A DNA stretch of 64,000 bases, taken from NCBI GenBank assembly GCA_038137215.1, contig JAYQBG010000001.1:40145-104144 (forward strand), read 5' to 3'. How positions within the stretch are numbered: position 1 is the first letter of the stretch; every line of letters starts with the position of its first letter. This document shows, piece by piece, positions 1-36,833 of this stretch. This stretch comes from Alphaproteobacteria bacterium. Its GTDB lineage: Bacteria; Pseudomonadota; Alphaproteobacteria; UBA6615. The notes under the pieces are model-generated. The model had not been told where the DNA came from. It made no database searches and saw nothing but the letters and a program-made list of their open reading frames with translations. Position numbers and translations under genes: made by a program.

Positions 1-3000
1 ACGATTTCTCGAGCGCAACAACATCGTCTTCCGGGCCGGTGTGAACGAAGATCTCGCCGCCACAGCAATCTGGGGGACCCAGCAGATCAACCTGTCGGAA
101 GGTGCCAAACACGATGGCGTCTTTGGCATGTGGTACGCCAAGGGTCCGGGCGTCGATCGTTCGGGCGATGCGCTCAAGCACGGCAATCTGGCCGGCTCAT
201 CCCCCCATGGCGGCGTCCTGCTGCTGGCCGGGGACGACCACACCTGCAAATCCTCGACCACCGCCCACCAGTCGGAATACGCCTTCGTGGACGCCATGAT
301 CCCGGTTCTCAATCCGGCCGGCGTGCAGGAGTTTCTCGATCTGGGGCTCTTCGGTTGGGCCATGTCGCGCTACTCCGGTTGCTGGGTCGCCTTCAAGACC
401 GTTGCGGAGACCGTGGACAGTTCGGCCTCGGTCCATGTGGATCCACACCGAATCGACATCGTGACACCGAACGATTTCGAGATGCCCATGGGCGGTCTCA
501 ACATCCGCTGGCCCGACGAATTCCTCGAGCAGGAAGAGCGCCTTCACAAATACAAGCTGCAAGCCGCACTGGCCTTTGCCCGCGCCAATCAGCTCGACAA
601 GGTTGTGATCGACAGCCCGAAGCGCCGCCTCGGTATTGTCACCACCGGCAAGAGCTATCTCGATGTACGGCAGGCGCTCGACGATCTGGGCATTTCCGAA
701 GAACAGGCCGCCGATATCGGGATCAGCCTCTACAAGGTCGCGATGGCCTGGCCGCTCGAACCCCAGGGCATGCGCGCCTTCGCCGAAGGTCACGACGAGA
801 TTCTTGTGATAGAGGAAAAACGCCCGCTGATCGAAGATCAACTCAAGGATCAGCTCTACAACCTGCCGGATTCCGCCCGGCCGAAGGTCACCGGAAAGTT
901 CGATGAATCCGGAAACTGGCTCCTCCCCTCGTCGGGCGAACTGACCCCGGCCCAGATTGCCCGCGCCATCGCGGGTCGCCTGTCACGCTGGCATAAATCG
1001 GAATCGATCTCCGAACGGATGGACTATCTGGCGCGCAAGGAAGCCTCGCTGGCCCAGCAGCCCCCCTCGGTCAAACGCATCCCCTATTTCTGCTCCGGTT
1101 GTCCCCACAACACCTCCACCAAGGTGCCCGAGGGCAGCCGCGCGCTCGCCGGCATCGGCTGTCACTTCATGTCGATCTGGATGGACCGCAACACGGAGAC
1201 CTTCACCCATATGGGCGGTGAAGGCGTGTCCTGGGTGGGACAGGCTCCGTTTGTCGAAGACGATCATGTCTTCGTCAATCTCGGCGACGGCACCTATTAC
1301 CATTCCGGCTATATAGCCATTCGTCAGGCCGTCGCATCCGGCGAGAACATGACCTACAAGATCCTGTTCAACGACGCTGTGGCCATGACCGGCGGCCAGC
1401 ATCATGACGGCCCGCTCACCGTGCCGGCCATCACCCGTCAGGTCGAGGCCGAGGGTGTCGCAAAAATCGTCGTCGTCACCGACGAGCCGGACAAATACCC
1501 GACCGGTGCACCCTTTGCCCATGGCGTCACGGTGCATCATCGCGACGAGCTCGACAGCGTTCAGAAAGACCTGCGCGACTATCCCGGCGTCTCGGTACTG
1601 GTCTATGACCAGACCTGCGCCGCCGAGAAACGCCGCCGTCGAAAGCGCGGCACCTTTCCCGATCCCGCCAAGTGGGTGATGATCAATGAACAGGTCTGCG
1701 AAGGCTGCGGCGATTGTTCGGTCAAGTCGAACTGTCTGTCGGTCGTTCCCGTCGAAACCGAATTCGGCCGGAAACGGTCCATCGACCAGTCGAGCTGCAA
1801 CAAGGACTATTCCTGTGTGAACGGGTTCTGTCCAAGCTTCGTGACCATCGAAGGCGGCGGGTTGCGCAAACCCGACACAGAGACACCGGTGGGTGCCGAC
1901 AGCGCCTTCGACGGGATCGCATTGCCCGAACCGAACCTGCCTGCGCTTGATGAGCCCTACGGCATCCTGGTGACAGGCGTTGGCGGCACGGGCGTTGTGA
2001 CCATCGGCGCGCTGATTGGCATGGCCGCCCATATCGAGAACAAGGGCGTCTCAGTCCTCGACATGGCCGGTCTCGCCCAGAAGGGCGGAGCCGTCATCAG
2101 CCATATCCGGATCGGCACCACGCCCGAAGATCTGCATGCCGTACGCATCGCCGCGGGCAGCGCCAATCTGATTCTGGGATGCGATCTGGTGGTCGCGGCC
2201 GGAACCGATGCCGTCGCCAAGATGCAGACGGGTGTGAGCCGGGCGGTGATAAACAGCCATGAAACGATCACCGGGGATTTCACCCGCAATCCCGACTTTA
2301 TGCTCAATGCCGGCGAACTCGCCCAGACAATTCGTGTCGCGGTGGGGGACAGTGCGGCAGATTTCGTCGAAGCCACCCGATACGCCACCGCCCTGATGGG
2401 TGATTCCATCGCCACCAACCTGTTCATGCTCGGGTATGCCTGGCAGAAGGGTCTGGTGCCGATTTCGCGCGACGCCCTGGAGCAGGCGATCGAACTCAAC
2501 GCCGTCGCGGTCGATTTCAACAAGGATGCCTTCCTTTGGGGCCGCCGTGCGGCCGTTGACGAAACCCGTGTCGCGCGCGCTGCCGAACCGGTGACGCCGC
2601 TGCGTCTGAAACAGGCCGATATTGCAAGCAGCCTCGAGGAGATCGTCGAGCGGCGCATTCGCTTCCTGACCAGTTATCAGAACGCCGCCTATGCGCGCCG
2701 CTACAAGGATCTGGTGGTTCGGGTGCAGAAGGCCGAGGGCGACCGCACAAAGGGGCAGTCTGGGCTGGCTGAAGTTGTCGCGCGTTACTACTTCAAGCTG
2801 CTCGCCTACAAGGATGAGTACGAAGTCGCACGGCTCTATACCGATGGCGAGTTCCAGCGCCGCGTCCGTGACCAGTTCGAGGGGGACTACAAGCTGAAGT
2901 TCCACATGGCCCCGCCGCTCTTCGCCAAACGCGACCCCGAGACCGGGGAGCTCGCGAAACAGGAATTCGGCCCATGGATGTTGACGGCCTTCCGGGTCCT

Positions 3001-7546: not shown

Positions 7547-7580
7547 AAAATTTTGGCCGGGCCGTGTGTGCGGCCCGGCC
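7547..7580 (-). terminator. rho-independent terminator downstream of dps
   Basis: Perfect 10-bp inverted repeat ggccgggccg-tgtgtg-cggcccggcc flanked by AAAATTTT, immediately 3' of the dps stop. Confidence 0.6.
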
Positions 7581-7600
7581 AGTGAAACCTATCGGGAAAA

Positions 7601-8095
7601 TTATCCAATCATGCTGCGGAGCATCCAGGCATTCTTCTCGTGCAACTGCATACGCTGGGTCAGCAGATCTGCTGTCGCTTCGTCATTGCCGGCCTCGGCG
7701 GTCGGAAACACTTCACGAGCAGTGCGCACAACGGTTTCCTGCCCTTCGGCCAATTGCCGGATCATATCCTCGGCGATGGGCACATCATCGGCTTCGGGAA
7801 TCGACGACAACTCCGCATAGGCGGCATAACTTCCGGGGGCGGCAAAGCCCAGGGCACGGATTCGTTCGGCAATTTCGTCCACGGCCAGAGCGAGTTCGTT
7901 GTACTGGGTCTCGAACATCAGATGCAGGGTGTTGAACATCGGCCCCGTCACGTTCCAGTGGAAGTTGTGGGTCTTCAGATACAGGGTGTAGGTGTCTGCC
8001 AGCAGCCGCGATAGCCCGTCTGCGATTTCTTGGCGTTGAGCTTCGGGAATGCCGATATTGACCGGCGCACCAATGGACGGGATGGGGGATGCCAT
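7601..8095 (-). CDS. dps: Dps family DNA-protection/ferritin-like protein
   Basis: 164 aa; [52 protein letters not shown] ferroxidase-site signature of Dps. Confidence 0.9.
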
Positions 8096-8110
8096 GCTTC
8101 GAACTCTTAT

Positions 8111-8128
8111 ATTAGAACCATTCTAAAT
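8111..8128. promoter_or_regulatory. candidate Irr-type iron control element (ICE) palindrome in dps promoter region
   Basis: ATTAGAA-CCA-TTCTAAAT, one mismatch from the Bradyrhizobium ICE consensus TTTAGAA-N3-TTCTAAA, about 15 to 35 bp upstream of dps ATG. Confidence 0.45.
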
Positions 8129-8265
8129 ATGAGTTGACGCATGGCAGTTTCAAGGCCCCCGGCGCGAAAAGACAATCACCTCCGGGACGAAAACCTGATT
8201 GGTGGACGCGAATTCGGAACCAGGAAGGCCAAAGGCGCCGTGGCGCCACCGACGACGCGAGACGG

Positions 8266-9489
<1,224 letters not shown>

Positions 9490-9563: not shown

Positions 9564-9698
9564 CTACTCGGCAGCAACGATATCGCGTTCCTGCTTGCGG
9601 CGCGCACCGCTTTCGGTGGTCAGCCAGAACGTCACGGCCGCAAAGGCAATCATTCCGGCACCGACAATTCCAAGGACAATCATGTTTTCGAGGGGCAT
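9564..9698 (-). CDS. hypothetical 44-aa single-TM membrane peptide (not in ORF track, below length cutoff)
   Basis: ATG at 9698 preceded by GGAGAC 6 nt upstream; MPLENMIVLGIVGAGMIAFAAVTFWLTTESGARRKQERDIVAAE has one hydrophobic helix then a basic tail; GGGCCG-ATAC-GGCCC hairpin just 3' of the stop. Confidence 0.35.
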   Translation of the reverse strand: MPLENMIVLGIVGAGMIAFAAVTFWLTTESGARRKQERDIVAAE

Positions 9699-36281: not shown

Positions 36282-36833
36282 TTATCCGCAGTCTCCGCTC
36301 AGCAGCAGGCGGCGCAGGTTCTTCGAGACTGCTTCTTCGCCAATCCAGAGCCGCAGGAGCGGGCGGAATACGTCATCGTCCGGCATTTCACGGCGGACCG
36401 CGCCATTCACGATAAGCCGGGCGCCCATTTCCGGTGCATAGACGATACGGACCTCATCACCCGACTCGAAATTCGCATAGATCTCGCGCACGGTCTGTTC
36501 CAGTTCCTCACGGACCATCCGGTCCAGCGGCTATGACCAGCTCTGCGGTATGTTGTCGGGAAGATCCCCGTAAAGAATTTTCAGCTGGACCGCCTTGGGC
36601 GTGCTGGCTGCCAGAATCTCATCCTGACCGAGCCCCGCCCGCGGCAGATAGAGCGCAGCCGCATAGAGGTCGAAAAACAGCGCCTCGCGGGCCCCGCACC
36701 CATGCAATTGCAGCGTCTGCGCCCCCGCCCGGATCTGTTCGGGAAAAGTGACACCCTCGATCTGTGCATAAGCGGCCGGCGTCATGAGGCTGGCAGCCCA
36801 GATAACCAGTCCGAAAATCATCGGCTTGCGCAT
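36282..36833 (-). pseudogene. chalcone-isomerase-like family secreted protein interrupted by in-frame TAG (36531..36533)
   Basis: ORFs 36531..36833 and 36282..36518 are in the same frame and together form one ~183 aa Chalcone_3-type protein (signal peptide, GVTFPEQIRAGAQTLQLHGCGAREALFFDLYAAALYLP ... then ELEQTVREIYANF ... LLRLWIGEEAVSKNLRRLL); sequence reads ...PQSWS-TAG-PLDRMVREE... Confidence 0.65.

Follow-up and report, generated by a model that had tools for sequence, protein, structure and literature searches.

The window, as we call the whole 64,000-nucleotide stretch of DNA that was analysed, is made up of ordinary chromosomal housekeeping DNA, and its positions 8096..8265 form a 170-bp gap between two minus-strand genes, one for aspartate aminotransferase (8266..9468) and the other dps (7601..8095). 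The protein encoded by dps carries a Pfam Ferritin domain (PF00210) at 1.3e-27 and its top NCBIfam matches are Dps models, every one of them below the cut-off. The features of dps and of the gap ahead of it, in order of coordinate, are as follows.

7554..7581, minus strand: strong intrinsic-terminator-like hairpin after dps (terminator scan; 11 bp with 10 G-C pairs, then AAATTTTGTC)
7601..8095, minus strand: dps, 164 aa with an N-terminal tail, stop codon included in the coordinates
8104..8108, minus strand: Shine-Dalgarno-like AAGAG, read from the sequence, 8 nt before the ATG
8111..8127, minus strand: putative Irr-box/ICE, one mismatch to consensus, unique in the window, kept in the clade
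8120..8125, minus strand: alternative -10 hexamer TAGAAT, inside the box
8126..8131, minus strand: -10-like hexamer CATATT (promoter scan), its last two bases being the first two T of the box
8148..8153, minus strand: -35-like hexamer TTGAAA (promoter scan), 20 nt upstream of the box
8234..8247, minus strand: short G+C hairpin GGCGCCACGGCGCC followed by TTTGG (minimum-free-energy and centroid folds)

The TTGAAA hexamer (8153..8148) and the CATATT hexamer (8131..8126) are 16 nt apart and together resemble a sigma-70 promoter, and whichever of the two -10-like hexamers is used the transcription start is predicted to fall inside the box, at about 8113-8120; the box ends 15 nt ahead of the dps ATG. 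Given its own promoter and the terminator-like hairpin that follows it, dps looks monocistronic. The hairpin at 8234..8247 sits 18 nt past the stop codon of the aspartate aminotransferase gene; it was given no call by the terminator scan and may be a weak terminator of that gene. An earlier note on this DNA had placed an ICE-type palindrome in the dps promoter region with a -35-like TTGAAA about 25 bp further upstream, and both placements hold, the box overlapping the -10-like hexamer and TTGAAA beginning 25 nt upstream of it.

On the plus strand positions 8111..8128 read ATTAGAACCATTCTAAAT, within which 8111..8127 form a 17-bp dyad of the ICE type, ATTAGAA-CCA-TTCTAAA on that strand and TTTAGAA-TGG-TTCTAAT on the dps strand. 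The dyad matches 13 of the 14 specified bases of the ICE consensus TTTAGAA-N3-TTCTAAA, the single mismatch being the outermost base, last on the dps strand, just as the earlier note had it when it put the site one base from the rhizobial consensus. The same note described a 7-3-7 palindrome; the perfect inverted repeat extends only to 6-3-6 (TTAGAA-CCA-TTCTAA, 8112..8126). Across the 64 kb the dps box is the one site with three or fewer mismatches to the ICE, and against the degenerate consensus used in our scans, TTTRGAAYNRTTCYAAA, the next best sites in the window have four. A site with at most one mismatch appeared in none of 100 dinucleotide-preserving shuffles of the window, and 5000 shuffles of the 150-nt upstream region gave no comparable site. 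In the window species only, the dyad extends into an imperfect palindrome of ~35 nt (AACTCATATTTAGAATGGTTCTAATATAAGAGTT, 8099..8133 on the minus strand) that reaches the ribosome-binding site.

Proteins identical to the Dps of the window are encoded on 18 metagenome contigs, only short marine and salt-marsh ones, and the closest genomes by Dps are MAGs labelled Alphaproteobacteria. UvrB of the window reaches 83% identity with that of a 'Rhodospirillaceae bacterium' MAG; its identity to entries from Pelagibius, Kiloniellales and Rhodospirillales is 71-76%. These protein identities place the host, an uncultured marine alphaproteobacterium of Rhodospirillaceae-like type, close to Rhodospirillaceae and Kiloniellales, in a part of the tree where Irr is known to occur. 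The relatives share the gene order uvrB-aatA-(EF-G-like)-MFS-dps-(FGase-GCS2)-DUF1244. The MFS gene that precedes dps in the relatives, often with the EF-G-like gene, between aatA and dps, is absent from the window species, and neither blastn nor tblastn found a remnant of it in the window intergenic region; in this species the sequence ahead of the dps promoter is thus unrelated to that of the relatives. The neighbourhood of dps is fluid, and three related contigs (L087, L089 and L091) have no dps at this position.

All seven clade lineages with readable dps promoter DNA, the window included, carry the box with 0-2 mismatches to the ICE consensus, its end lying 13-26 nt from the ATG in every case. 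The sites, read on the dps strand, are the following.

Window: TTTAGAATGGTTCTAAT, one mismatch
L007: TTTAGAATAATTCTAAA, no mismatch
L092: TTTAGAATAATTCTAAA, no mismatch
L094: TTTAGAATTGTTCTAAA, no mismatch
L088: CTTAGAAGTGTTCTAAA, one mismatch
L093: TTTAGACAAATTCTAAA, one mismatch
L008: ATTAGAAATATTCCAAA, two mismatches

When five of these promoters, four of them from independent lineages, are aligned, the columns that never vary are the ATG, two isolated ones further upstream and, within the box, TTAGAA, TTC and AA. The flanks of the box could not be aligned between the window and its clade relatives, and in blastn of the window intergenic region against those of the relatives the box was the sole shared stretch. 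Shuffling each clade promoter 5000 times matched its own site in 0 to 2 cases per sequence. The same-species contigs L001-L006 all keep the box, one of them with the spacer changed to TGA, a change that is expected since the spacer bases are not contacted. Other promoter elements recur around the box: a -35-like hexamer stands 20 nt (+/-1) upstream of it in five of the seven promoters, being TTGAAA in the window, TTGAAG in L092, TTGTAT in L007, CTGAAA in L094 and TTGAAA in L088; (C/T)ATATT lies over the start of the box in six of the seven (the window, L007, L092, L094, L093 and L008); and the Shine-Dalgarno-like place is taken in the relatives by GAGGAG, AAGGAG or GGGG. In the window and most relatives the predicted hexamers put the transcription start inside the box, which as a prediction matches the placement at the Irr-repressed genes bfr, blr7895 and mbfA. 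At the level of sequence, the comparison establishes that purifying selection has strongly conserved the box while the orthologous promoters around it diverged. Retained by all the relatives that we looked at, the box is almost certainly a genuine repressor site, a conserved operator of the ICE type on the dps promoter and of an already familiar kind.

These data bear directly on whether a trans-acting regulator is needed at all, for the dyad might be part of the core promoter (-10 or discriminator), an RNA hairpin of the 5'-UTR, or chance. The left half-site does hold the -10-like TAGAAT, and in the window species the palindrome does extend into the longer hairpin described above. The right half-site TTCTAA is nevertheless conserved as much as the left, which a -10 element cannot explain, and L088 retains the dyad even though its left half, TAGAAG, makes a poor -10. 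The relatives do not share the extended hairpin, the RNA fold of the intergenic region is no better than that of shuffles (z = -0.8), and Rfam gave nothing at the gathering threshold, its one match being at chance level (E 0.78) and outside the intergenic region. Conservation of the right half-site and the shuffles exclude chance and a promoter-only explanation, and we consider an origin of the dyad that involves no trans-acting regulator very improbable.

It is also improbable, though somewhat less so, that the box is the operator of an unrelated dimeric factor (CtrA-like, OxyR-like or other) and that its likeness to the ICE is coincidental. The core TTAG-N7-CTAA differs at two positions from the loose CtrA pattern (TTAA-N7-TTAA) and likewise from the OxyR half-site pattern, and the regulator of the box is itself inferred. 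These loose patterns specify only eight bases, however, and the mismatched G and C are precisely the invariant ones. Further, 13-14 of the 14 ICE positions match in six independent promoters, boxes of this type were found together with Fur-family genes in the loci L061 and L076 (see below), and the dps intergenic region has no matches to Fur, RirA, FixK, LexA or MntR boxes.

The best scores of these other boxes in the dps intergenic region were eight mismatches for the 19-mer Fur box and five for its 7-1-7 form, four for the FixK box, eight for the MntR box, three of eight for the alphaproteobacterial LexA box and two of six for the RirA box. The CtrA box had two of eight mismatches, at invariant bases that are not those of CtrA, and the OxyR motif was rejected because its two mismatches fall on the invariant G and C.

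Irr is an alphaproteobacterial Fur-family protein that binds the ICE without haem, i.e. at low iron, represses iron-storage and iron-using genes under those conditions, and is inactivated or degraded on binding haem, with the involvement of reactive oxygen (PMC7762939). At genes repressed by Irr the box overlaps the promoter or the transcription start, and the 5' end of Rhodobacter sphaeroides mbfA maps inside its Irr-box, as do those of Bradyrhizobium japonicum bfr and blr7895 (PMC3413700). In Brucella, Dps falls as Irr rises, according to a correlative proteome (PMC5587712). Irr is reported to have arisen before Rhizobiales, Rhodobacterales, Rhodospirillales and SAR11 diverged, strict co-occurrence of ICE and irr has been described, with ICE motifs only in Irr-bearing Alphaproteobacteria (Rodionov et al. 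2006, PMC1698941), and a minimal Irr regulon of one to five peroxide or iron-detoxification targets has been described for the Rhodospirillaceae/Kiloniellales part of the tree (PMC1698941).

We therefore read the palindrome as a putative operator (Irr-box/ICE) of an Irr-type repressor of the Fur family that controls the monocistronic dps, and assign this reading a probability of about 0.65. It is favoured by the dyad itself, by its place over the -10-like hexamer of a gene of the iron, haem or peroxide type and by its conservation in all seven orthologous clade promoters. We infer that the box is read by Irr, that the direction is repression and that the signal is iron, haem or peroxide. A dimer bound to the box, which begins inside the -10 hexamer and extends over the predicted transcription start, would block RNA polymerase and so keep it off the dps promoter. 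On the model of characterised Irr proteins, the regulator would bind DNA under iron or haem scarcity and shut off the iron-sequestering Dps; on iron sufficiency it would bind haem and be released or degraded, which peroxide would also promote, so that production of Dps would coincide with the threat of Fenton damage from free iron and peroxide. The predicted repressor geometry, taken together with the role of Dps as an iron-sequestering protein of peroxide defence, makes repression when iron or haem is scarce the best reading, and on the same model dps would be derepressed by iron sufficiency and probably by peroxide.

Searches for the regulator gene covered the window and the related loci of the clade. 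Searching all six-frame segments of the window by phmmer with E. coli Fur and B. japonicum Irr found no Fur-family gene, and none of its 34 ORFs carries PF01475 (Pfam), in agreement with the earlier observation that no irr gene lies in the window; the same two queries found no Fur-family gene in ~125 kb of related clade loci. The B. japonicum Irr query matches P0121 at 100% identity and clears the NCBIfam cut-offs for Irr and IrrA, and a protein database search with an Irr query returned only Bradyrhizobium-like proteins. With no Fur-family gene in the window or the clade loci, the identity of the regulator rests on motif and taxon, and the lack of an irr gene in both counts against the Irr reading. 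Against it too is the lack of regulon context, since the window has no second ICE with three or fewer mismatches and the clade loci (~125 kb) have ICEs only at dps; this lack is also consistent with a minimal regulon. In the literature that could be searched we found no experimental link between Irr and dps, only the 2006 prediction and the correlative Brucella proteome. The Rieske (bc1) gene of the window has no ICE upstream.

Dps proteins from Burkholderiales, cyanobacteria, Acidobacteria, Myxococcota and others (L009-L086) share 70-82% identity with that of the window. This cross-phylum identity is far above that of UvrB even within Alphaproteobacteria and, as a comparison of protein sequences, suggests horizontal spread or extreme constraint. 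In ~66 non-alphaproteobacterial loci (Burkholderiales, cyanobacterial and other) there was no site with two or fewer mismatches within 350 nt upstream of dps, and among the dps loci compared the box was, as a sequence element, restricted to alphaproteobacterial ones. Two further alphaproteobacterial MAGs carry it, one as a perfect box 102 nt before the dps ATG (L083) and the other in a degraded form with three mismatches (L069); the Dongia-type and several other alphaproteobacterial dps loci have none. Throughout the ~534 kb of loci that were fetched, sites with two or fewer mismatches lay only in dps or Fur-family promoters save one, a cyanobacterial intergenic site that is likely a chance match.

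A plasmid search with the Dps protein, after which ten alphaproteobacterial dps loci were read, added a second, independent group of sites in an order known to have Irr, which favours the Irr reading. The box is present with one mismatch 113-114 nt before dps on plasmids of Phaeobacter piscinae, Sulfitobacter pontiacus and Roseivivax (L097, 552..568; L098, 542..558; L099, 546..562), the Dps of these Roseobacter plasmids being only 38-40% identical to that of the window. It was absent at the other seven loci, namely Dinoroseobacter shibae (two), Limimaricola, Chelativorans, Phyllobacterium, Rhizobium leguminosarum and Sphingomonas, the plasmid dps genes of D. shibae and Limimaricola being among those without it. 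With a box at three of the ten loci and none at seven, dps is an optional and not a universal ICE target, and the boxless dps genes of the Irr-bearing D. shibae, Limimaricola, Chelativorans, Phyllobacterium and R. leguminosarum count against the Irr reading. The Roseobacter plasmid sites fit an earlier prediction that counts dps among the members of the iron regulon in three Rhodobacteraceae (Rodionov et al. 2006, PMC1698941). On these plasmids the box falls at the end of a conserved hypothetical gene of 140-175 aa, and a DUF1289 gene follows dps in L097 and L098 and lies upstream of it in L099.

Loci from two Acidobacteria MAGs raise the question of which branch of the Fur family reads the box. 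In L061 (Pyrinomonadaceae) a perfect TTTAGAA-CTA-TTCTAAA (1266..1282) stands 6 nt before the ATG of a Fur-family gene (1289..1720), with dps ~60 nt after the regulator, from about 1780; in L076 (Acidobacteria) TTTAGAC-TTA-GTCTAAG, at about 560, stands upstream of a similar Fur-family gene (575..976) ~1.5 kb upstream of dps. Both Fur-family proteins match PerR models best and Irr/IrrA models next, all below cut-off. ICE-type boxes thus occur beyond Alphaproteobacteria too, at odds with the 2006 survey. An autoregulatory site likened to Irr-boxes has been reported for Leptospira perRA, as have residues of the regulatory site and the DNA helix that Irr shares with PerR (PMC8638967). Since the same type of box precedes PerR/Irr-like genes near dps in Acidobacteria, and a similar one is reported for Leptospira, the motif alone does not prove Irr.

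The box of the window might accordingly be read by a PerR-like, peroxide-sensing Fur paralogue and not by a haem- or iron-sensing Irr, in which case unstressed cells would keep dps repressed and H2O2 would induce it, on the pattern of mrgA under PerR in Bacillus subtilis. Beyond the Acidobacteria and Leptospira sites, this is favoured by the predicted minimal Irr regulons of Rhodospirillales, which consist of peroxidase or rubrerythrin genes, a PerR-like set (PMC1698941). Read as a 7-1-7 dyad (TTAGAAC-C-ATTCTAA), moreover, the box agrees with the Bacillus PerR box TTATAAT-N-ATTATAA at all but three of 14 bases. That comparison also yields the main objection: G at half-site position 4 and the symmetric C separate the ICE from the Bacillus box, which has T/A there, and both are invariant in all the clade, Roseobacter and Acidobacteria sites seen, so that the dps intergenic region holds no Bacillus-type PerR box, its best match having these three of 14 mismatches. 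Classical PerR is, in addition, as far as is known uncommon in Alphaproteobacteria whereas Irr is widespread there, which also counts against a PerR-like reader, and we regard such a reader as a live but unlikely alternative. The distinction is in part semantic, as Irr itself responds to peroxide; the practical difference would lie in the signal, which with a PerR-like reader would be peroxide and not iron or haem. A broader proposal, which we hold to be doubtful, is that the ICE-type dyad joined to dps is an ancient module, common to the PerR/Irr branch of the Fur family as a whole and not invented in Alphaproteobacteria; its reader in this clade would be PerR-like and peroxide-sensing, with a regulon of one or a few genes. 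If true, this would contradict the 2006 statement limiting the ICE to Irr-bearing Alphaproteobacteria.

With the Irr reading as the preferred one, the window site resembles several described systems. The genes bfr (bll6680) and blr7895 of B. japonicum (Rudolph et al. 2006, as relayed in PMC1698941 and PMC3413700) have the same 17-bp TTTAGAA-N3-TTCTAAA, and there too the box lies over promoter and start of a gene of the ferritin superfamily, with repression at low iron. The host of the window differs in being Rhodospirillaceae-like and not of the Rhizobiales, the target in being Dps and not bacterioferritin or rubrerythrin, and the window site in being a predicted one. R. sphaeroides mbfA and ccpA make up a minimal Irr regulon of iron-detoxification and peroxide-defence genes such as is proposed here, and the start of mbfA inside its box is the geometry predicted at the window dps; the mbfA and ccpA sites bind Irr in vitro, whilst the window has a single predicted site, on another gene and in a different order (PMC3413700). 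Closest in target are the dps genes of Rhodobacteraceae (PMC1698941) and of the Roseobacter plasmids L097-L099, which like that of the window are alphaproteobacterial dps genes with an ICE-type box upstream, although the 2006 text (PMC1698941) does not state which motif precedes dps in Rhodobacteraceae. On the Roseobacter plasmids the box is ~113 nt before the start codon, beside a -35-like element, whereas in the window it lies over the -10 hexamer and the start.

Similar comparisons can be made for PerR. In the 2003 work of Fuangthong and Helmann, PerR of Bacillus subtilis is said to control mrgA, a dps homologue, through the PerR box quoted above. The signal for PerR is peroxide, by way of metal-catalysed histidine oxidation, and not haem. 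The PerR-mrgA pair and the window site have in common a Fur-family repressor, putative for the window site, and a dyad of the 7-1-7 type at the promoter of a Dps-family gene, with 11 of 14 bases shared; they differ at position 4, G/C and invariant in the window site and T/A in the PerR box. The perRA site of Leptospira interrogans resembles those of L061 and L076 in joining an Irr-box-like operator to a PerR-like regulator outside Alphaproteobacteria; it is autoregulatory, on the regulator gene itself, and belongs to a different phylum (PMC8638967).

Motif, regulator family and logic are textbook for Alphaproteobacteria and would not surprise specialists. Under the Irr reading, the site would add dps as a conserved, probably core, Irr-type target in a marine clade outside Rhizobiales and Rhodobacterales, in a part of the tree for which earlier predictions gave only one to five Irr targets per genome, and would extend the 2006 prediction made for some Rhodobacteraceae. 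It would also offer a clean cis-element and promoter for studying how iron sequestration is coupled to iron, haem and peroxide status, and the Acidobacteria boxes before PerR/Irr-like genes near dps bear on the divergence of the Irr and PerR recognition codes.

Two other observations concern ORFs elsewhere in the window. Between uvrB and aatA lies an ORF of 44 aa (9564..9698, minus strand) with a hydrophobic N-terminal half; it matches no Pfam family, almost every contig of the relatives has an ORF of 42-44 aa called in the corresponding position, and it may encode a conserved small membrane protein. At 36282..36518 and 36531..36833, both on the minus strand, two short ORFs lie next to each other, the first matching the C-terminal part and the second the N-terminal part of the Pfam family Chalcone_3; the pair looks like one gene split by a frameshift or stop, i.e. 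a pseudogene or an assembly error.
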